Position numbers and translations under genes: made by a program
Source of the DNA: Acutalibacteraceae bacterium
GTDB lineage: Bacteria; Bacillota; Clostridia; Oscillospirales; Acutalibacteraceae
Direction: 5' to 3'
DNA: 64,000 nucleotides
Assembly (NCBI GenBank): GCA_045546915.1
Contig: JAZQDU010000008.1
Location: 34,291-98,290, forward strand
Part shown: positions 2,876-11,440 of the stretch, one piece after another
Layout: the number at the start of each line of letters is the position of its first letter
Position numbering within the stretch: position 1 is the stretch's first letter
Notes under the pieces: model-generated
Databases searched by the model: none
Told to the model about the DNA's origin: nothing
What the model saw: the letters and a program-made list of their open reading frames with translations, nothing else

Positions 2876-2904
2876 TTGACAAATTGAAAATTTGAGCGTA
2901 TAAT
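2876..2904 (+). promoter_or_regulatory. Sigma-A type promoter (TTGACA-17-TATAAT)
   Basis: TTGACA at 2876-2881, an exact 17-nt spacer, TATAAT at 2899-2904. It lies directly upstream of the T-box leader. Confidence 0.75.
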
Positions 2905-2910
2905 ACAGTA

Positions 2911-3190
2911 AAATCTTTAAAGGCTATGACGAAGACGGAGAATTTTTAGTTCTCACAGAGAGTCGGGGATGGTGTGAACCCGACAGAATGAAAAGTTCAA
3001 TCCCATCACTTCCGAGCCGAAGACCTGAACGTTTTTATTAGTAGGCGTCTTCCGTGACTGCTACGTTAGTGCATAGGATTTGTCAGAATCCGAAGTGGCG
3101 TTTTTACGCAATTTGAGTGGTACCGCGGGTACGAATAGTTTGTTCGACTCGTCTCAAAGAAAACCTTTGAGACGAGTCTTTTTATTTTTC
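2911..3190 (+). promoter_or_regulatory. T-box riboswitch leader, predicted specifier AUC (Ile)
   Basis: Stem I base is GGCUAUGACGAAG (2922-2934) paired with CUUCCGAGCC (3009-3018), a GA/K-turn. AG bulge CAGAGAGUCGG, distal loop GGUGUGA, T-box motif AAUUUGAGUGGUACCGCG (3110-3128) and a terminator are present. The 3' side of the specifier loop reads ..CCC AUC A|CUUC, with the codon at 3005-3007. Confidence 0.85.
3146..3190 (+). terminator. Intrinsic terminator of T-box leader 1
   Basis: GACTCGTCTCAAAG / CTTTGAGACGAGTC 14-bp stem followed by TTTTTATTTTT. It sits 3' of the T-box motif and 5' of the RBS. Confidence 0.85.
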
Positions 3191-3208: not shown

Positions 3209-5476
3209 ATGAGTACAAAAAACACAATGACTGAATTATCCGAGGTTGCATCGCGAATTAAGGAGATGCGCGAGATAATGGGTTGGACGGCAGCCGAAAT
3301 GGCCGAAAAGACCGAGGTGACCGAAGAAATTTATAATATGTACGAAAGTGGTGAGGATGACCTTCCGTTCTCGTTTATTTATAAATGTGCTAAGGTGTTT
3401 GATATTCAGATGACACAGTTGCTTGAAGGTAAAACAGCAAGACTGTCATCGTATACTGTCACAAGAAAGGGTCAAGGACAGACCACTGTTGATGAGGATG
3501 GCATTGTTATACGCAATCTGGCTCCTAAATTTAAGGATAAAATCTCCGAACCATACATGGTACGTTATGAATATTCGGCAGAGCTTCAAAACCGCCCCAT
3601 TCATTTGACAACCCATTCAGGTCAGGAGTTTGACCTTGTTTTGGAAGGCTCCTTGAAGGTTCAGGTTGGAGAACATACTGAGGTTCTCAATGAGGGCGAT
3701 AGTATTTATTACAATTCTTCAACACCCCATGGTATGATTGCCGTTGGCGGTAAGGACTGCGTTTTTTGTGCAGTTGTTCTTCCCGGTGAGGAAACTGAGG
3801 AGCAGACCGTTACTAAAAGTATTGCAAGGGCTCGTTCAACGCAAACTCTCGTTTGTGAGAAGTTTGTTAAGGCAGAAGAGGACGAAAACGGATGTTTGAA
3901 ATCTATCGAATTCCCTAATAAAGAAACTTTTAACTTTGGTTTTGATATAGTAGACGGTATCGCTGAAAAATATCCCGAAAAATTAGCGATGATTCATGTT
4001 GACAAAAATATGACCGAGCGTAAATTTACGTTTGCTGATATAAAGAGAGCGTCTTCGCAGGTTGCTAACTATTTTGCATCACTTGGGATCAAAAAAGGCG
4101 ACCGCGTAATGCTCGTTCTTAAAAGACATTATCAGTTCTGGTTTTCTATGGTAGCATTGCATAAATTAGGTGCAATAGCAATTCCTGCTACACATCAGCT
4201 TAAAGACCACGACTTTGAGTATCGCTTTAATGCAGCAGGTGTTTCGGCGATTGTTTGTACCTCGGATGACGATGTTTATAAAATTGTAGATGTAGCGCAA
4301 GCAAAATCTCCCACTCTTAAAACCAAAATTTTGGTTGGTGGTAGCGCTGAAGGTTGGCACGATTTTGATGCTGAATACGGTAGGTTTTCGGGTAAGTTTA
4401 ATCGTACTGAAGATTCATCGTGCGGTGACGAAGCTGCTTTGATGTTCTTTACTTCGGGCACTACCGGTAATCCTAAAATGGCTTGCCATAAGCATACCTA
4501 TGCGTTAGGTCATTTTGTTACCGCTAAATATTGGCATTGTTGCGAACGTGAGGGATTACACTTAACCATTTCCGATACAGGTTGGGGTAAATCTCTTTGG
4601 GGTAAACTTTACGGTCAGTGGTTGTGCGAGGGGGCAGTCTTTGTATATGACTTCGACCGCTTTAATGCTGCCGATATTTTACCAATGTTTGCAAAATACA
4701 ATATCACTACCTTCTGTGCACCTCCTACAATGCTCCGTATGTTAATTAAGGAAGATTTGTCTAAGTACGACCTTTCTTCTATCCACCATATGACCACTGC
4801 AGGCGAGGCGTTAAACCCTGAAGTATTCCGCCAGTTTGAGGCTGCTACAGGCTTGCAGATAATGGAAGGCTTCGGTCAGACCGAAACAACACTTACTATA
4901 GCAAACCTTGTAGGTACTACTCCAAAACTCGGTTCTATGGGTAAAGCATCACCTCAGTACAATATTGATATAGTCGACCCTGACGGCAACTCGGTACCAA
5001 CGGGTGAAACGGGTGAGATTGTTATCCGCCTTGACGGTAATACTCCTTGCGGACTGTTTAAGGAATATTATCTTGATGACGAAAAGACAAACGAGGCAAT
5101 TTATGACGGTATGTATCATACAGGCGATACCGCATGGCGTGACGAGGACGGTTATTTCTGGTACGTAAGCCGTATAGATGACGTTATTAAGTCTTCGGGC
5201 TACCGTATTGGACCTTTCGAAATCGAAAGCGTAATTATGGAATTGCCGTATGTTTTAGAATGTGGTGTTTCGGCGGCACCTGACGAGGTTAGAGGTCAGG
5301 TTGTAAAGGCAAGTATTGTGCTTACAAAGGGTACCGAACCTACCGAGGAACTTAAAAAAGAAATTCAAGCTTATGTTAAAGAGCATACGGCACCGTATAA
5401 GTATCCGAGGGTTGTTGTTTTCCGTGACGAATTACCTAAAACTATAAGCGGTAAGATTCAAAGAAATAAACTTTGA
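3209..5476 (+). CDS. Fusion protein: XRE-type HTH + cupin domain + AMP-forming (medium/short-chain) acyl-CoA synthetase
   Basis: AAGGAG at 3195-3200 precedes the ATG at 3209. The N-terminus has an HTH (IKEMREIMGWTAAEMAEKTEV..) and a cupin (HSGQEFDLVLEG..GDSIYYNSSTPHGM). The synthetase part has FFTSGTTGNPKM, GFGQTETT, YHTGD, SSGYRIGPFEIE and PKTISGKIQR. Confidence 0.88.
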   Translation: MSTKNTMTELSEVASRIKEMREIMGWTAAEMAEKTEVTEEIYNMYESGEDDLPFSFIYKCAKVFDIQMTQLLEGKTARLSSYTVTRKGQGQTTVDEDGIVIRNLAPKFKDKISEPYMVRYEYSAELQNRPIHLTTHSGQEFDLVLEGSLKVQVGEHTEVLNEGDSIYYNSSTPHGMIAVGGKDCVFCAVVLPGEETEEQTVTKSIARARSTQTLVCEKFVKAEEDENGCLKSIEFPNKETFNFGFDIVDGIAEKYPEKLAMIHVDKNMTERKFTFADIKRASSQVANYFASLGIKKGDRVMLVLKRHYQFWFSMVALHKLGAIAIPATHQLKDHDFEYRFNAAGVSAIVCTSDDDVYKIVDVAQAKSPTLKTKILVGGSAEGWHDFDAEYGRFSGKFNRTEDSSCGDEAALMFFTSGTTGNPKMACHKHTYALGHFVTAKYWHCCEREGLHLTISDTGWGKSLWGKLYGQWLCEGAVFVYDFDRFNAADILPMFAKYNITTFCAPPTMLRMLIKEDLSKYDLSSIHHMTTAGEALNPEVFRQFEAATGLQIMEGFGQTETTLTIANLVGTTPKLGSMGKASPQYNIDIVDPDGNSVPTGETGEIVIRLDGNTPCGLFKEYYLDDEKTNEAIYDGMYHTGDTAWRDEDGYFWYVSRIDDVIKSSGYRIGPFEIESVIMELPYVLECGVSAAPDEVRGQVVKASIVLTKGTEPTEELKKEIQAYVKEHTAPYKYPRVVVFRDELPKTISGKIQRNKL

Positions 5477-5479
5477 TAC

Positions 5480-5508
5480 TTGACAAATAGCGACATATTT
5501 GGTATAAT
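5480..5508 (+). promoter_or_regulatory. Sigma-A type promoter with extended -10 (TTGACA-17-TGgTATAAT)
   Basis: TTGACA at 5480-5485, a 17-nt spacer ending in TGG, TATAAT at 5503-5508. It starts 4 nt after the upstream stop codon. Confidence 0.75.
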
Positions 5509-5514
5509 TCCAAA

Positions 5515-5792
5515 ATAAAGGCTTTGACGAAGAGGGCAGGATTTTTAGTGTTTTCAGAGAGTCGGCGTTGGGTGTGAGTCCGGCATCACGTTTTCTTTGC
5601 TTGTAACTTCTGAGCTGAAAGGAAGAACAGCGTTTTGCTTAGTAGAACCTTTCCGTTACGGCTACGTTAGTGCATAGGGCTTAGTGAGCCTGAGTGGTGC
5701 GAATATAGTGTTTGCGCAATTTGAGTGGTACCGCGGGATATAAAGTTTTTATAGCTCGTCTCAAAGGAAATGCTTTGAGGCGGGCTTTTATT
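5515..5792 (+). promoter_or_regulatory. T-box riboswitch leader, predicted specifier GUA (Val)
   Basis: Paralogous to leader 1. Base is GGCUUUGACGAAG (5520-5532) paired with CUUCUGAGCU (5607-5616). It has CAGAGAGUCGG, a GGUGUGA loop, AAUUUGAGUGGUACCGCG (5718-5735) and a terminator. The specifier loop reads ..UU GUA A|CUUC, with the codon at 5603-5605. Confidence 0.85.
5753..5792 (+). terminator. Intrinsic terminator of T-box leader 2
   Basis: AGCTCGTCTCAAAG / CTTTGAGGCGGGCT stem (with G-U pairs) followed by TTTTATT. Confidence 0.8.
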
Positions 5793-5845
5793 GTAAAACC
5801 TATGGTTTCGCCTCGAAAGACAACTTCTATTTTTGGAGGTACTTT

Positions 5846-8152
5846 ATGAAGACAACCGGTCTCGAATTTAAAATTAAAGAAATGGCTAAGCGTATTGCCG
5901 ACCTTAGAGAGATTGTCGGCCTTACCACAGCCGAAATGGCACTTCACACCGGTGTTAGCGAAGAGGAGTATCTTGCTTGCGAGGCAGGCGAGCGCGACCT
6001 TAACTTTGCTTTCCTTTACCGCTGTGCTTTAGCGTTAAAGGTTGACGTTACCGATATTATTGAGGGTAGCAGTCCCCGTCTTGCAGGCTATACGGTGACA
6101 AGAAGGGGAGAAGGTCAGCGAATTGAGGAGGCTCATGGGCTTAGATACTACAATCTTGCCGCATCGTTTAAAAATCGTATTGCTGAGCCTTTGTATGTTG
6201 TTACCGAATATAACGAGGAAGCACAGAATGCCGATATCGAACTCACTGCCCACCAGGGACAGGAGTGCGATATAATCATAAAAGGTGCTCTAAAAGTTCA
6301 GATTGGCGACCATGTTGAGATACTTCACGAAGGTGACAGCATATATTATGACAGTTCGGTTCCTCACGGAATGATTGCGGTTGAAGGTAACGAATGTACC
6401 TTTTATGCTATTGTTCTTAACCCTCAGGGTGAACCTATTGACCATATGGTTCACGGTGGTGTTAAAGAGTTTACATTGGCTTCAAAGCGTCCTTCAGTTG
6501 CTCATGAGATGGCTGTGGAGGACCGCGTTTGGGAGGACTTTGTAATTCCTACCGAAAACGAGAATGGAACAATTACTAAAATTGACTTTAAGAATGAAGA
6601 TAACTTCAACTTTGCTTTTGATGTTATCGACCGATTAGGTCGTGAAAAGCCTGACAAATTGGCAATGGTTCATCTTGACCGCGAACGTAATGAACGCAAG
6701 TTCACTTTCGCTGATATAAAACGTGCTTCGTCGCAGACTGCTAACTACTTCAAATCTTTGGGTATTGGCAAGGGCGATAAAGTTATGCTTATCTTAAAGC
6801 GTCATTATCAGTTCTGGTTCTCAATTTTGGCTTTACATAAACTCGGCGCAGTTGCTATTCCTGCAACCAATCAACTTAAAGAGCACGATATTACTTATCG
6901 TATCAATGCCGCAGGCGTAAAAGCGGTTATTTGTACTGCCGACGGCGAAGTGTCCAACGAGGTTGATATTGCTGCCAAACACTGTGAGTGCTTAGAGCAC
7001 AAGATTATGGTTGGCGGTAAAAAGGATGGCTGGAGAAACTTCGATGAGGAGTATAGCCTCTATACCGGTAAGTTTGAACGTACCGATGATTCGCCAAAAG
7101 GCAACGATACTATGCTTATGTATTTCACTTCGGGTACAACAGGCAATCCTAAAATCGCAGTACATAACTATAAATACCCGTTAGGACATTTTATAACTGC
7201 AAAATACTGGCATTGCGTAAACCCTGACGGAATTCACTTTACCATTTCAGATACAGGTTGGGCAAAGGCTGCTTGGGGTAAAATTTATGGTCAGTGGCTT
7301 TGCGAAACCGCATTGTTTGTTTACGATTTTGATAGATTTGATGCTGCAGATTTGTTGCCAATGTTTGCAAAATATAGCATTACTACATTCTGTGCGCCGC
7401 CTACAATGCTTCGTATGCTTGTTAAAGAGGATATTTCAAAGTATGATTTGTCTTCGGTTGAGCATATGACTACAGCAGGTGAGGCACTAAATCCTGAGGT
7501 GTTCCGTCAGTTTGAAAAGGCAACGGGACTTCAGATTATGGAAGGTTTCGGTCAGACCGAAACAACCTGTGCGCTCGCAAACCTTGTCGGAACAAGAACA
7601 AAGGTTGGCTCAATGGGTAAACCAGTACCGCTTTATGATATTAAATTGCTTGATGCCGACGGTAAAGAGGTAAGCGTTGGCGATGTAGGTGAAATATGTA
7701 TCAACATTTCTGAAAAAGTGCCGTGCGGTTTGTTCTGCGGTTATTTTAACGATAAAGAAAAAACCGATGAAGTTTGGCATGACGGATTCTATCATACCGG
7801 CGATACAGCATGGAAAGACGAAGATGGATATTTCTGGTATGTCGGACGTGTTGACGACGTTATCAAGTCATCTGGTTATCGCATAGGACCGTTTGAGATA
7901 GAAAACGTTATTATGGAATTGCCGTATGTTTTGGAATGTGGCGTTTCTGCTGCACCTGACGAAGTAAGAGGTCAGGTTGTTAAGGCAAGTATTGTACTTA
8001 CTAAAGGCACAGAGGCCACTGAAGAACTCAAAAAAGAAATTCAGAATTATGTCAAAAACAGAACAGCACCGTATAAATATCCGAGAATAGTTGTCTTCCG
8101 TGACGAATTACCCAAAACAGTTAGCGGAAAGATTCAACGTAATAAACTTTAA
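5846..8152 (+). CDS. Fusion protein: XRE-type HTH + cupin + AMP-forming acyl-CoA synthetase (paralog of 3209..5476)
   Basis: GGAGG at 5835-5839. Same three-domain layout as its paralog. The C-terminal ~110 aa are nearly identical to the paralog, while the central region is more diverged. Confidence 0.88.
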   Translation: MKTTGLEFKIKEMAKRIADLREIVGLTTAEMALHTGVSEEEYLACEAGERDLNFAFLYRCALALKVDVTDIIEGSSPRLAGYTVTRRGEGQRIEEAHGLRYYNLAASFKNRIAEPLYVVTEYNEEAQNADIELTAHQGQECDIIIKGALKVQIGDHVEILHEGDSIYYDSSVPHGMIAVEGNECTFYAIVLNPQGEPIDHMVHGGVKEFTLASKRPSVAHEMAVEDRVWEDFVIPTENENGTITKIDFKNEDNFNFAFDVIDRLGREKPDKLAMVHLDRERNERKFTFADIKRASSQTANYFKSLGIGKGDKVMLILKRHYQFWFSILALHKLGAVAIPATNQLKEHDITYRINAAGVKAVICTADGEVSNEVDIAAKHCECLEHKIMVGGKKDGWRNFDEEYSLYTGKFERTDDSPKGNDTMLMYFTSGTTGNPKIAVHNYKYPLGHFITAKYWHCVNPDGIHFTISDTGWAKAAWGKIYGQWLCETALFVYDFDRFDAADLLPMFAKYSITTFCAPPTMLRMLVKEDISKYDLSSVEHMTTAGEALNPEVFRQFEKATGLQIMEGFGQTETTCALANLVGTRTKVGSMGKPVPLYDIKLLDADGKEVSVGDVGEICINISEKVPCGLFCGYFNDKEKTDEVWHDGFYHTGDTAWKDEDGYFWYVGRVDDVIKSSGYRIGPFEIENVIMELPYVLECGVSAAPDEVRGQVVKASIVLTKGTEATEELKKEIQNYVKNRTAPYKYPRIVVFRDELPKTVSGKIQRNKL

Positions 8153-8157
8153 AGATT

Positions 8158-8814
8158 ATGAAAAGAGTAACACTTTTTGCAGGTCATTATGGAAGTGGCA
8201 AGACCAATATTGCGGTAAATTACGCGTTGTGGCTTAAAAGTCAGGGTAAGGATGTTATGATTGCTGACCTTGATATTGTCAATCCGTATTTTCGCACTAA
8301 GGACAGCGCTAAGGAGTTGGCGGACGCGAATGTCGAACTTATTTCGCCGCAGTTTGCAAATTCCAACGTTGACCTACCTGCGCTTCCTGCTGAGACCTAT
8401 AAGATAATTCAAAACAAGCAAAAATTTGCCGTGCTTGATATAGGCGGTGACGACCGAGGGGCGTATGCTTTAGGTCGTTATGCACCTGCTATTTTGGAAG
8501 AAAACGATTATGAAATGGTTTTTGTTGCCAACTTTTCAAGACCTCTCACAAGAACGCCCCAAGAGGCATTAGAGGTTATGCGTGAGATAGAGCAGGCAGG
8601 AAAAATCAAGTTTACGGCTATTGTTAATAACTCCAATATTGGAGAATTAACGACCGCAAATGACGTTTTGCAAACTAACGAAAAAGCAAAGGCTTTAAGT
8701 GAACTGTCAAGGCTGCCCGTAATTATGACAACGGCAGAAAAAAGAATAGCCGATGAATTACAATTAAAAATGCAAAATGTTTTTGCACTTAATTTACAGA
8801 AAAAACTTTTTTAA
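8158..8814 (+). CDS. P-loop NTPase of the MinD/ParA/CooC-like (SIMIBI) type
   Basis: N-terminal Walker A GHYGSGKT, then ..IADLDIVNPY.. and ..VLDIGGDD... It starts 6 nt after the synthetase stop with no terminator, so it is co-transcribed. Confidence 0.7.
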   Translation: MKRVTLFAGHYGSGKTNIAVNYALWLKSQGKDVMIADLDIVNPYFRTKDSAKELADANVELISPQFANSNVDLPALPAETYKIIQNKQKFAVLDIGGDDRGAYALGRYAPAILEENDYEMVFVANFSRPLTRTPQEALEVMREIEQAGKIKFTAIVNNSNIGELTTANDVLQTNEKAKALSELSRLPVIMTTAEKRIADELQLKMQNVFALNLQKKLF

Positions 8815-8829
8815 AAAGGGGAAAAGAAT

Positions 8830-9036
8830 ATGGCAAAGGTAACGTTTGATACCGACATTTGCAAAGGCTGTGGACTTTGTGTTACGGCCTGTCCTAAGGG
8901 CATTGTTAGGCTTGCTACGGACAAAATCAATAAAAAAGGATATTCTCCTGCGGAAATTACCGATGAGTCGAAATGCATTGGTTGTGCTTTCTGTGCAACC
9001 ATGTGTCCCGATTGCGTAATTACCGTTGAGAAATGA
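8830..9036 (+). CDS. 2x[4Fe-4S] ferredoxin; delta subunit of 2-oxoacid:ferredoxin oxidoreductase
   Basis: 68 aa with two CxxCxxCxxxCP motifs (CKGCGLCVTACP, CIGCAFCATMCP). It immediately precedes the alpha subunit. Confidence 0.85.
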   Translation: MAKVTFDTDICKGCGLCVTACPKGIVRLATDKINKKGYSPAEITDESKCIGCAFCATMCPDCVITVEK

Positions 9037-9046
9037 GGTGTAAATA

Positions 9047-10108
9047 ATGGCAGAAAAAGTACTTATGAAAGGTAACGAGGCTATTGCAGAGGCCGCTATC
9101 AGAGCAGGTTGTATGCATTACTTTGGTTATCCTATTACTCCGCAGACCGAAATTGCGGCTTATATGGCTAAAAGAATGCCTAAAATCGGCGGTGTATTTC
9201 TTCAGGCCGAGAGCGAAGTTTCGGCTATTAATATGGTTTATGGCGTTGCAGGTACCGGATACCGTGTAATGACTTCTTCGTCAAGCCCCGGTATTTCGCT
9301 TAAAGGCGAGGGCATTTCATACCTTGCCGGTAGTGACCTCCCTGCACTTATCGTCAATGTTCAGCGTGGCGGCCCCGGTCTTGGTGGTATTCAGCCTTCA
9401 CAGTCTGACTATTTCCAGGCAACTCGTGGCGGTGGACACGGTGACTATCATATTCTTGTTCTTGCACCTGCATCGGTTCAAGAAATGGCAGATATGACCG
9501 CAAAGTGTTTTGACCTTGCCGATAAATACCGTATGCCTGCTATGATTTTGGCAGACGGTACAATGGGTCAGATGATGGAACCGGTTGAACTTCCTGAACC
9601 TACCGAATACAAAAAGGAAAAAGATTGGGCGGTAACCGGTACAAAATGTGAGCGTAAACACAATATTATAAACTCTCTTTATCTCCAACCTGATGAACTC
9701 GAAAGAACTAACTTCGAGCGTTTTGAGCGTTATAAGCAGATTGAAGAGAACGAGACCATGTACGAAGAGTTTATGATGGAGGATGCCGAGATTTGCGTTG
9801 CAGCGTTCGGCATTGCTGCACGTGTTTCTAAAAACGCTATTATAGCAGCAAGGGCAGAGGGTATTAAGGTTGGTATGATTCGCCCGATTACTCTTTGGCC
9901 GTTCCCGAAAAAGCCTTTCTTAGAGGCAGCCGACAAGGTTAAAGAATTTATCTCGGTTGAACTTTCAATGGGTCAGATGATTGAAGACGTTAAACTTGCC
10001 ACTGAGTGCAAAAAGCCCGTAACTCTTTGCAACCGTACCGGTGGTATGATTCCCGAACCCGAGCAGGTGCTCGAAGCAATCAGAAAAGCAGCAGGAGGTA
10101 ACAAGTAA
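9047..10108 (+). CDS. vorB: 2-oxoacid:ferredoxin oxidoreductase alpha subunit (VorB-like, 3-methyl-2-oxobutanoate dehydrogenase (ferredoxin) type)
   Basis: N-terminus VLMKGNEAIAEAAIRAGC..FGYPITPQTEI is typical of OFOR alpha subunits. GAGGTG RBS. Substrate class is inferred from the T-box context, not from sequence alone. Confidence 0.8.
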   Translation: MAEKVLMKGNEAIAEAAIRAGCMHYFGYPITPQTEIAAYMAKRMPKIGGVFLQAESEVSAINMVYGVAGTGYRVMTSSSSPGISLKGEGISYLAGSDLPALIVNVQRGGPGLGGIQPSQSDYFQATRGGGHGDYHILVLAPASVQEMADMTAKCFDLADKYRMPAMILADGTMGQMMEPVELPEPTEYKKEKDWAVTGTKCERKHNIINSLYLQPDELERTNFERFERYKQIEENETMYEEFMMEDAEICVAAFGIAARVSKNAIIAARAEGIKVGMIRPITLWPFPKKPFLEAADKVKEFISVELSMGQMIEDVKLATECKKPVTLCNRTGGMIPEPEQVLEAIRKAAGGNK

Positions 10109-10863
10109 TGGCAGTTGTATTCCAAAAACCTAAGTCTTTGACCGATGCACCGCTTCATTACTGTCCCGGTTGCACACACGGTATTATTCATCGACTTGTT
10201 GCCGAGGCTATTGATGAACTCGGTATTGAGGGCAAGACCATAGGTGTTGCTCCTGTTGGCTGTGCTGTTATGGCATATAACTATTTCGCTTGCGATATGG
10301 TAGAGGCTGCTCACGGACGTGCACCCGCGGTTGCAACAGGACTTAAAAGAGCGTTGCCTGAAAACATTATTTTCACCTATCAGGGTGATGGCGACTTGGC
10401 TTCTATCGGTATGGCTGAAACTGTTCATGCCGCAACAAGAAATGAAAATATCACCGTTATTTTCGTAAACAATGCAATTTATGGTATGACCGGTGGTCAG
10501 ATGGCACCGACTTCTTTGCCCGGTCAGGTAACACAGACCTCTCCTTACGGACGCGATGTTAACACTGTGGGTTACCCCATTCGTGTTTCCGAAATGCTCG
10601 CAACCTTGGAAGGCCCTGAGTTTATTCAGCGTGTTGCAGTCAACAATGTTAAAAACGTAATGTCTGCTAAAAAGGCAATTAAAAAGGCATTCCAGAATCA
10701 GGTTGAGGGCAAAGGCTTCTCGCTTATTGAGGTTGTTTCAACCTGTCCTACCAACTGGGGTATGACACCTGAAAAGGCACTTAAATGGGTTGATGATAAT
10801 ATGTTGCCTTACTATCCTCTTGGTGTGTATAAGGACAGAAGTGCCGCAAAGGAGGAAAAGTAA
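10108..10863 (+). CDS. 2-oxoacid:ferredoxin oxidoreductase beta subunit (TPP-binding)
   Basis: YCPGCTHG.., a GDGD motif and ..NNAIYGMTGGQ.. match the TPP/[4Fe-4S] beta subunit pattern. The start overlaps the alpha stop (TAATG). Confidence 0.85.
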   Translation: MAVVFQKPKSLTDAPLHYCPGCTHGIIHRLVAEAIDELGIEGKTIGVAPVGCAVMAYNYFACDMVEAAHGRAPAVATGLKRALPENIIFTYQGDGDLASIGMAETVHAATRNENITVIFVNNAIYGMTGGQMAPTSLPGQVTQTSPYGRDVNTVGYPIRVSEMLATLEGPEFIQRVAVNNVKNVMSAKKAIKKAFQNQVEGKGFSLIEVVSTCPTNWGMTPEKALKWVDDNMLPYYPLGVYKDRSAAKEEK

Positions 10864-11403
10864 ATGAGTACTGTTAATATGCTTATTGCCGGCTTTGGCG
10901 GACAGGGTGTTCTTTTCGCAGGCAAGTTTATTGCCTACAAAGGTCTTTTAGAAGGTAAGGAACTTTCTTGGCTTCCTTCTTACGGCCCTGAGATGCGTGG
11001 TGGTACTGCTAACTGCAGCGTTATTTTAAGTGATATCCCCGTAGGCTCACCCATCGTCTCAAAACCCGATGTGCTTATGGCAATGAACCTCCCGTCGCTT
11101 GATAAGTATGAAGATACCGTTGTTTCGGACGGATACATTTTTGTAGATTCAACGCTTATCGACCGAAAGGTAGTCCGTTCTGATGTTAAGGCTTTTTATA
11201 TTCCTGCAACCAGACTTGCAAAAGAAGCAGGTTTCCCCACACTTGCCAATATGATTATGGTTGGCAAAATTATAAAAGAAGCAGGCATTGTTTCGCATGA
11301 GGGACTTACCGATGCTCTTAAAAAGGTAGTTTCAGCCAAGCGCGCAGAACTACTTGACGTTAACCTTAAAGCCATCGAAATTGGTTACAACTACGAAGGT
11401 TAA
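10864..11403 (+). CDS. 2-oxoacid:ferredoxin oxidoreductase gamma subunit
   Basis: N-terminus ..IAGFGGQGVLFAGK.. and ..SYGPEMRGGTA.. are typical of gamma subunits. It starts 1 nt after the beta stop. Confidence 0.85.
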   Translation: MSTVNMLIAGFGGQGVLFAGKFIAYKGLLEGKELSWLPSYGPEMRGGTANCSVILSDIPVGSPIVSKPDVLMAMNLPSLDKYEDTVVSDGYIFVDSTLIDRKVVRSDVKAFYIPATRLAKEAGFPTLANMIMVGKIIKEAGIVSHEGLTDALKKVVSAKRAELLDVNLKAIEIGYNYEG

Positions 11404-11411
11404 TTTTTAAA

Positions 11412-11440
11412 ACGGAAGTGATTTTTCACTTCCGTTTTTT
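11412..11440 (+). terminator. Intrinsic terminator ending the oxidoreductase operon
   Basis: ACGGAAGTGA / TCACTTCCGT stem followed by TTTTTT. Confidence 0.85.

Follow-up and report, generated by a model that had tools for sequence, protein, structure and literature searches.

An XRE-like/cupin module joined to MacsMa-type acyl-CoA synthetases of gut Clostridia, probably as a non-DNA-binding accessory part of the enzyme

Two tandem genes on the forward strand of a 64,000-nucleotide stretch of DNA from an Acutalibacteraceae bacterium (GenBank assembly GCA_045546915.1, contig JAZQDU010000008.1, positions 34,291 to 98,290; called the window here, with its first nucleotide as position 1) encode proteins in which an XRE-like helical domain and a cupin domain precede a complete AMP-forming acyl-CoA synthetase related to MacsMa of Methanosarcina acetivorans. 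Judged from sequence comparison, the two N-terminal domains, which together we call the module, are probably a conserved, non-DNA-binding accessory part of the enzyme. We put at roughly 0.5 the probability that the module specifically serves branched-chain acyl-CoA synthetases, as an accessory or sensor that works at the protein level. A preliminary description of this DNA had instead favored a DNA-binding trigger enzyme that adds a further transcriptional layer of control, a reading disfavored by the acidity of the helical domain, its loss of contact residues, the operator search, the positions that separate the paralogs, and the proximity of the module to the enzyme HppE. The parts of the two genes are as follows.

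3209..5476, + strand: gene 1, a 755-amino acid fused protein, the isoleucine T-box paralog (open reading frame with ribosome-binding site, Pfam, match to PDB 3etc, homologues)
3209..3433, + strand: gene 1, amino acids 1-75, XRE-like five-helix domain, acidic, net charge -7 (HTH_3, AlphaFold2, charge and contact analysis)
3434..3790, + strand: gene 1, amino acids 76-194, inter-domain strands and cupin barrel (Cupin_2, invariant columns)
3614-3616, 3626-3628, and 3728-3730, + strand: gene 1, invariant cupin residues His136, Glu140, and His174, respectively
3791..3838, + strand: gene 1, amino acids 195-210, flexible linker and probable fusion joint (low AlphaFold2 confidence)
3839..5473, + strand: gene 1, amino acids 211-755, complete AMP-forming acyl-CoA synthetase of the MacsMa type (core motifs, 3etc)
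5846..8152, + strand: gene 2, a 768-amino acid paralogous fused protein, the valine T-box paralog (Pfam, alignment with gene 1)
5846..6427, + strand: gene 2, amino acids 1-194, XRE-like domain (amino acids 1-75, net charge -5) and cupin (Cupin_2 at 41.5 bits, alignment with gene 1)
6251-6253, 6263-6265, and 6365-6367, + strand: gene 2, conserved cupin residues His136, Glu140, and His174, respectively

Both genes have a good ribosome-binding site, and in both proteins the order is XRE-like helical domain, cupin, short linker, and full synthetase. The gene 1 protein matches the Pfam families HTH_3 (34.3 bits, cut-off 23, amino acids 18-70), HTH_19 (34.2 bits, cut-off 30.2), Cupin_2 (46.9 bits, cut-off 27.2, amino acids 136-190), AMP-binding (224 bits, amino acids 253-621), and AMP-binding_C (75.7 bits). 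The gene 2 protein matches Cupin_2 (against the same cut-off), AMP-binding (224 bits), and AMP-binding_C (74.4 bits), whereas its helix-turn-helix matches all fall below the Pfam cut-offs (HTH_19 24.4 bits against 30.2, HTH_31 20.1 bits, HTH_3 16.4 bits). The three families proposed earlier for a domain check were therefore all found in gene 1, and of the classic XRE helix-turn-helix first seen in both paralogs, the fold stands but is divergent. The two proteins are 63% identical over their whole length and 48% identical across the N-terminal ~200 amino acids.

AlphaFold2 modeling of the module alone, from an 89-row alignment, gave a predicted local distance difference test (pLDDT) score of 87.6, with five helices within amino acids 3-73 (3-23, 28-34, 39-47, 54-64, and 68-73) and a β-barrel at amino acids 91-191. 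The cupin that had been described after the helix-turn-helix is thus borne out by the Cupin_2 matches in both proteins, by the modeled barrel, and by the presence of the motifs quoted for it. The linker is shorter than the ~60 amino acids first proposed. Only amino acids 195-210 have pLDDT below 50, giving a linker of ~15-20 amino acids, and the other ~40 residues are a normal synthetase N-terminus. In related systems in which module and synthetase are encoded by separate genes (split systems), the stand-alone modules stop near the gene 1 linker, and the separate 552-558-amino acid synthetases begin at about amino acid 210 of gene 1, their residue 1 aligning to residue 24 of 3etc. An artefact of assembly or reading frame was ruled out by at least 120 full-length homologue clusters and 80 genome loci, so that the region is genuine, as the preliminary description had held.

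The synthetase part, correctly recognized at the outset as full length, matches the structure of MacsMa (PDB 3etc) with E 2e-185, a template modeling score for the fold of 0.77 (target-normalised), and 51% identity in the structural alignment. Both window proteins have intact core motifs A3 (FTSGTTGNPK), A5 (GFGQTET), A7 (YHTGD), A8 (KSSGYRIGPFEIE), and A10 (PKTISGKIQR), and all five are kept in 163 of 174 fused relatives. Among NCBIfam models, MbcS (NF047394) fits best, scoring 441 and 443 bits against a curated cut-off of 850; the window proteins are thus not MbcS equivalogs.

The architecture is widespread. The best 120 homologue clusters are 754-756 amino acids long (one has 794) and show 79-94% identity and an unchanged set of Pfam domains; only a few have names, either 'AMP-binding protein' or 'acetyl-CoA synthetase'. 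Databases already contain the architecture, with generic labels. Among genomes representing one GTDB species each, at least 544 have a relative of the N-terminal 250 amino acids. The best 80 of these belong to Acutalibacteraceae, Oscillospiraceae, Christensenellaceae, 'Ruminococcus', and unclassified Clostridia metagenome-assembled genomes, and the host animal, where named among these 80, is always a ruminant (yak, sheep, goat, deer, or buffalo). Additional fused forms are labeled Lachnospiraceae and Solobacterium. A search with amino acids 1-235, in which each 50%-identity cluster was represented by a single sequence, yielded 2819 relatives (E ≤ 0.001).

Many relatives are stand-alone proteins of ~185 amino acids that are 33-45% identical over amino acids 9-190 and have the conserved motifs in common. 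In the three lineages looked up (Methanolobus profundi, Ligaoa zhengdingensis, and a third), the stand-alone gene lies immediately upstream, on the same strand, of a gene for a 552-558-amino acid AMP-binding protein. Among 80 metagenome loci from a search with a profile of the stand-alone form, 32 are fused, 26 are split with the synthetase gene directly downstream, and 4 have other neighbors; the remaining 18 were not assessable (15 had too little sequence and 3 were missed by the motif search). The intergenic gap is -38 to +32 nucleotides in 22 of the 26 split loci. The Methanolobus synthetase is a MacsMa orthologue (E 1e-280 to 3etc) and is followed by ferredoxin and oxidoreductase genes. 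At this locus (L081, 6001-11111, Methanolobus profundi), the order is HTH-cupin (184 amino acids), Macs, ferredoxin, oxidoreductase alpha, and a fused beta/gamma, a cluster that mirrors the bacterial locus and so implies a role in reductive carboxylation for MacsMa-type enzymes in methanogens.

In a simple distance tree (neighbor-joining) built from 50 non-redundant modules, the fused forms make up one clade nested within the split forms. This nesting points to a single fusion followed by duplication into the isoleucine and valine paralogs, and repeated independent fusions were not found in the same tree. The window proteins are therefore the fused version of an old two-gene unit common to Archaea and Firmicutes, with the fusion having taken place in one lineage of Clostridia, among Oscillospirales-type gut bacteria.

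The helical domain is strongly acidic in 310 of 310 members examined. Over amino acids 12-74, the net charge averages -7.0 ± 1.5 in fused forms (n=190, range -10 to -2) and -5.9 ± 2.5 in stand-alone forms (n=120), compared with +4 to +5 for the 434 repressor, +2 for PuuR (a validated repressor; sequence from E. coli K-12), +3 for 1y9q, -2 to +2 for four further solved DNA-binding XRE domains (counted from alignments), and -4 for the helical domain of HppE. Per residue, the helical domain of gene 1 is three times as acidic as the synthetase. The alignment with the 434 repressor is free of gaps up to Pro42, just past helix 3 and the contact loop, and structural features of that repressor are kept (the Arg10-Glu35 pair, Gly14, Ala21, Gly37, and Pro42). 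The residues that we take, from general knowledge of the complex, to be its DNA contacts are replaced or vary across the module family: Gln17 by A/I/V, Gln28 by E in fused and V/L in stand-alone forms, Gln29 by E/Q/D, Gln33 by A/E/S, Lys38 by N/K/E, Lys40 by Asp in 309 of 310 sequences (Glu in the other), and Arg41 by I/L/F, while next to Arg43 Phe54/Ser55 flank a single-residue gap. The module thus lacks the DNA-contact surface of XRE-cupin regulators, in which helices 2-3 and the following loop are polar or basic within a neutral-to-positive domain. Exposed positions of helix 3 vary even among close orthologues, with charge reversals included.

We also searched for an operator in ~100 orthologous promoters anchored on their -35 and -10 elements, comparing inverted repeats with dinucleotide shuffles and counting k-mers. 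In these promoters, which are the genes' own, no shared operator was found, the common elements being the -35, the -10, and A/T tracts; a site elsewhere in the genome may exist. Long inverted repeats (arms of at least 7) were mildly enriched (39% against 23%), all of them due to T-tract/A-tract symmetry in the UP-element region. Upstream of the split loci there was no common palindrome except the T-box terminators. Taken together, these indicators, which are indirect, point away from a DNA-binding role.

The cupin, in turn, has a strongly conserved site. His136, Glu140, and His174 are invariant across the family, as are the GQE and GD motifs across archaea and bacteria. In the alignment with HppE, a mononuclear non-heme-iron enzyme, the three residues fall at its HAGNE and PH motifs, which we take to be its iron site. 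A profile of the stand-alone form searched against solved structures gave HppE as best match (53.2 bits, E 3e-13, positions 9-182), methylphosphonate synthase second, and then the regulator 1y9q (46.6 bits). Profile alignment of the module by hhalign scored 92.0 against HppE (E 2e-14, probability 98.3%, 24% identity) and 71.1 against PuuR (E 6e-11, probability 97%, 18% identity), and ~16 inter-domain residues are common to the module family and HppE but missing from PuuR. These profile comparisons place the module a little nearer to HppE, an enzyme, than to PuuR, a repressor. PuuR keeps the His/Glu/His positions, so the triad marks a conserved site and is not diagnostic of catalysis.

Selection acts on the whole protein. 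Among 47 orthologues compared with gene 1, the nonsynonymous substitution rate (dN) is 0.135 for the synthetase, 0.167 for the cupin, 0.276 for the helical domain, and 0.381 for the linker; the synonymous rate (dS) is saturated (~2), so that only the ordering of dN is usable and not dN/dS. All regions appear to be under purifying selection, with the cupin nearly as constrained as the catalytic part. These values and the invariant cupin residues agree with the earlier view of a conserved module that has a function in both paralogs. Twenty positions, each conserved inside its group, separate the isoleucine and valine paralog groups: seven in the helical domain, six in the cupin region, and seven in the much larger synthetase. 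As 13 of the 20 lie in the module and none in helices 2-3, the module has diverged between the paralogs, and not where DNA specificity would reside.

A small clade of fused proteins has lost catalytic motifs: P0391 and P0393 (loci L172, 3020-5296, and L171, 8001-10268), and also P0160, P0392, and P0394, 56-85% identical to P0160. These dead paralogs retain the helical domain and the cupin His-Glu-His, with QSYS[YD][GD]MA[KQ] replacing TSGTTGNPK in the ATP-binding A3 loop, and A7, A8, and the A10 Lys variably lost. At both of the two loci examined, an intact fused paralog immediately precedes the dead copy, which lacks a separate T-box core motif; at L172, an aminotransferase gene comes after the dead copy. 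The placement of dead copies beside live ones suggests a non-catalytic, possibly hetero-oligomeric role.

The genes stand behind T-box leaders and beside a VOR-type oxidoreductase, as had been described from the sequence, and these features are confirmed by Rfam and by Pfam matches to the oxidoreductase subunits.

2876..3178, + strand: gene 1 control region, with sigma-70 promoter at 2876-2904, T-box leader at 2917-3159, specifier AUC at 3005-3007, and terminator at 3146-3178
5480..5786, + strand: gene 2 control region, with promoter at 5480-5508, T-box leader at 5515-5766, specifier GUA at 5603-5605, and terminator at 5753-5786
8158-8814, + strand: P-loop NTPase (weak CbiA/ParA/SRP54 Pfam matches)
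8830-9036, 9047-10108, 10108-10863, and 10864-11403, + strand: 2-oxoacid:ferredoxin oxidoreductase delta, alpha, beta, and gamma subunits, respectively (Pfam Fer4, POR_N/PFOR_II, TPP_enzyme_C, and POR)
11409-11438, + strand: terminator after the oxidoreductase, ending the downstream block 8158..11438

Both promoters match the sigma-70 consensus at 12 of 12 positions. The T-boxes match the full Rfam model (RF00230, positions 1-219) with 90.5 bits (E 2e-19) for gene 1 and 86.7 bits (E 2e-18) for gene 2, just below the gathering score of 93, so that a default Rfam scan of the window reports no T-box. By our reading, the specifiers are isoleucine for gene 1 and valine for gene 2; across related loci, the specifier is ATC in 62 leaders of 755-amino acid orthologues and GTA/GTC in 26 of 27 leaders of 762-768-amino acid orthologues. 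The survey of co-occurrence suggested in the preliminary description bears out the association: a T-box core lies upstream of 100 of 102 fused genes in genome loci, and an oxidoreductase lies downstream of the fused gene in 26 of the 32 related loci having enough sequence. A homologue of the 218-amino acid P-loop NTPase, which is encoded between the fused synthetase and the oxidoreductase, occurs in all 26 of the related loci with the oxidoreductase; it may be a maturation or assembly factor.

Firmicute split loci with a T-box core and terminator before the stand-alone gene were also seen (L084-L086, L093, L096-L099, L118, and L127). A T-box upstream of the stand-alone 'regulator' gene places the two-gene operon, too, under tRNA-sensing control. 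The count of T-box cores in split loci, 6 of 25, is a lower bound, the GGTGGTAACGCG variant in L084-L086 having been missed by the first regular expression.

Further upstream in the window, a third acyl-CoA synthetase gene (38-2047) is of a different type (FadD-like, PRK12583). It starts with ~125 extra amino acids that bear a weak resemblance to the final third of a TIM barrel of the xylose-isomerase-like kind (E 0.004 to AP_endonuc_2, positions 172-232 of 249); the gene could be a truncated fusion, or its start could be disrupted near the window edge. Between it and the first T-box is an Amidohydro_2-family gene (2010-2861, 124 bits), which overlaps the end of the preceding gene by 38 nucleotides.

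Reductive carboxylation is an established route in rumen anaerobes, and it is the basis of the pathway that we propose. Gene 1 would activate 2-methylbutyrate, and gene 2 isobutyrate, to the CoA thioester; these substrates are suggested by the T-box specifiers, the oxidoreductase context, and the data on MacsMa. The adjoining ferredoxin oxidoreductase would then reductively carboxylate the thioester, giving the 2-oxoacid from which isoleucine or valine is made, with uncharged tRNA-Ile or tRNA-Val raising expression. MacsMa prefers 2-methylbutyrate and by itself makes 2-methylbutyryl-CoA in vitro, and the acyl-adenylates it forms from many acids fail to reach the thioester and are released (PMC10455477). 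MbcS likewise activates branched short acids (PMC10026030). Isobutyrate, 2-methylbutyrate, and isovalerate are needed or used by many rumen and gut anaerobes and methanogens for branched-chain amino acids, and rumen methanogens use branched short acids for the synthesis of isoleucine and leucine (PMC10658910).

In the accessory-module reading that we prefer, the module would act on protein and not on DNA, and would descend from the separate ~185-amino acid gene upstream of the synthetase gene. The cupin His-Glu-His site would bind a metal and/or a small carboxylate ligand, for which an amino acid, a 2-oxoacid, a fatty acid, and an acyl-CoA are candidates. The acidic XRE-like domain may have been exapted as a protein-protein contact or a lid, as in homotetrameric HppE, and the helical domain and cupin together would tune the activity or assembly of the synthetase to the status of the pathway, leaving transcription to the T-box. 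Catalysis should be independent of the module, because MacsMa works alone in vitro (PMC10455477). More specifically, and with odds a little short of even, the module may be a metal-dependent small-molecule site (a sensor or a second active center) that gates acyl-CoA synthesis by the end product or 2-oxoacid, with the XRE fold exapted to an acidic docking domain, from methanogens to rumen Clostridia. The preliminary description had offered an allosteric or substrate-related domain as its alternative, and that idea is better supported than a trigger enzyme, with ligand binding and allostery as its inferred parts.

Several points weigh against the accessory-module reading. It has to postulate ligand binding, metal binding, allostery, oligomerization, and contact between module and synthetase. 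The AlphaFold check proposed for the helix-turn-helix returned its five-helix fold, but the full-length model has a predicted template modeling score of only 0.56 and a low-confidence linker, so that the placement of the domains relative to each other is not confident. Net charge is a heuristic: DNA-binding DdrOC, at about -2, overlaps the least acidic members of the family. In Foldseek comparison, HppE is the top match (E 2.8e-14) but is not separated from 1y9q (E 1.3e-13), so the fold alone does not decide between enzyme and regulator relatives. Gene adjacency fits a regulator equally well and does not separate the accessory-module reading from its rivals, because XRE-cupin repressors act locally (PMC7901475) and PuuR is encoded inside its own operon. 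Last, the T-box core motif was not seen in the archaeal split loci and in some of the bacterial ones, and some other regulator must act there.

One rival is a trigger enzyme or fused transcription factor, in which an XRE dimer would bind DNA and be switched when the cupin and/or the synthetase is occupied (by acyl-AMP, for instance, much as biotinyl-AMP acts in BirA), controlling its own or other genes. The homology to XRE-cupin proteins is real (PuuR at 97% hhalign probability, 1y9q at a fold E of 1e-13, HTH_3 above cut-off in gene 1), characterized members of that family are local repressors of adjoining enzyme genes (PMC7901475), the split loci without a T-box core need some regulator, and the persistence of a catalytically dead fused clade implies some non-catalytic role. 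We nevertheless consider a trigger enzyme unlikely. The domain is acidic in every member examined, it has acidic or hydrophobic residues at 434 contact positions with Asp in place of Lys40, and no conserved operator was found in the ~100 promoters; the exposed positions of helix 3 are free to vary, and the paralog-separating positions avoid helices 2-3. The helix-turn-helix matches of gene 2 are below cut-off, and the Firmicute fused genes, as well as many split operons, are already controlled by T-boxes.

Were the module instead a passive scaffold, it would di- or tetramerize the synthetase or tether it to the oxidoreductase, with no ligand sensed and a purely structural His-Glu-His. Cupin proteins of such a layout are oligomeric, HppE being a homotetramer (PMC9088020); the two genes lie close together and were later fused; a dead paralog beside a live one suggests hetero-oligomers; and the paralog-specific residues fall in the helical domain and barrel strands, as expected of interfaces that keep paralogs apart. 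Invariance of the triad, GQE, and GD across archaea and bacteria exceeds the usual needs of an interface, however, and many split loci have no adjacent oxidoreductase, so that tethering is not a general role; a scaffold that senses nothing is rather improbable. Least likely of all, with only a slim chance, is a second catalytic center, an HppE-like metallo-cupin step coupled to acyl activation; it might proofread or hydrolyze incorrect acyl-adenylates or acyl-CoAs, or supply the oxidoreductase. The best solved relatives (HppE, MPnS, and HEPD) are enzymes with the same layout and His-Glu-His positions, the constraint on the cupin nearly equals that on the synthetase, and the release of unproductive acyl-adenylates by MacsMa leaves room for a helper activity (PMC10455477). 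Against this stand the sharing of the triad by PuuR, a route from fatty acid through acyl-CoA and 2-oxoacid to amino acid that has no step obviously needing a cupin, and a gene context that yields no substrate candidate. The hosts, gut Clostridia and methanogens, are moreover strict anaerobes, which makes peroxide or oxygen chemistry of the HppE type implausible.

Literature searches on domain architecture, trigger enzymes, T-boxes with oxidoreductases, reductive carboxylation, and HppE turned up no paper that deals with the fusion or the gene pair. The comparisons given here define a conserved unit of XRE-like/cupin module and Macs-type synthetase, often with a ferredoxin oxidoreductase, in Archaea and Bacteria; among Firmicutes, isoleucine or valine T-boxes often control it. 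The enzymes of the branched-acid route are known in outline. One implication is that biochemical studies have characterized the MacsMa family in the absence of its natural partner. Should the module be a sensor, it would supply a protein-level feedback layer for the pathway and would clearly exemplify the reuse of a DNA-binding fold to regulate protein; if the site is metal dependent as proposed, the module would be a previously unrecognized regulatory subunit of acyl-CoA synthetases. The labels 'transcriptional regulator' and 'acetyl-CoA synthetase' on the fused and stand-alone proteins are probably misleading.

Comparison with known systems places the window proteins between several families. 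The characterized synthetases MacsMa and MbcS have no fused N-terminal module (the 3etc chain has 580 amino acids and the MbcS model 525 positions) and were assayed on their own (PMC10455477, PMC10026030), whereas in Methanolobus the MacsMa orthologue has the module as a separate upstream gene. XRE-cupin regulators (PuuR of E. coli; ErfA, PsdR, and PauR of Pseudomonas; PDB 1y9q) consist of the same two, homologous domains with matching cupin His/Glu/His positions and, like the module, are encoded beside related metabolic genes (PMC7901475). They differ in that the module has a strongly acidic helical domain, lacks the polar and basic contacts, has no operator found in ~100 promoters, and is always tied to one enzyme family. 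Trigger enzymes that carry a DNA-binding domain are exemplified by BirA, PutA, and NadR, whose binding of DNA is documented; BirA is also adenylate-forming. These three, like the fused proteins, combine a metabolic enzyme and a helix-turn-helix-type fold in one polypeptide, but the sequence indicators of DNA binding are negative for the window proteins, whose transcription is already controlled by T-boxes. FadD1 of Pseudomonas aeruginosa, an acyl-CoA ligase of the AMP-binding family, has been reported to be a promoter-binding regulator through its AMP-binding domain (PMC12754631); it has neither helix-turn-helix nor cupin, and its architecture is unrelated to that of the window proteins. HppE, a homotetrameric iron enzyme with a helical domain and a barrel domain (PMC9088020), and its relatives HEPD and MPnS, all non-heme-iron enzymes of phosphonate metabolism, resemble the module in combining a helical domain with a cupin, in having an acidic helical domain within an enzyme, and in their aligned His-Glu-His. 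They differ in being only 20-24% identical, and in that the module comes joined to an acyl-CoA synthetase. Enzymes of the HppE type are defined by Fe(II)-dependent oxidation of 2-hydroxyalkylphosphonates and a phosphonate gene cluster, whereas the locus showed no phosphonate genes and has synthetase, ferredoxin oxidoreductase, and T-boxes as its context. Because the DNA-contact surface of the regulators is missing, and with it the gene context of HppE, we assign the window proteins to neither family.

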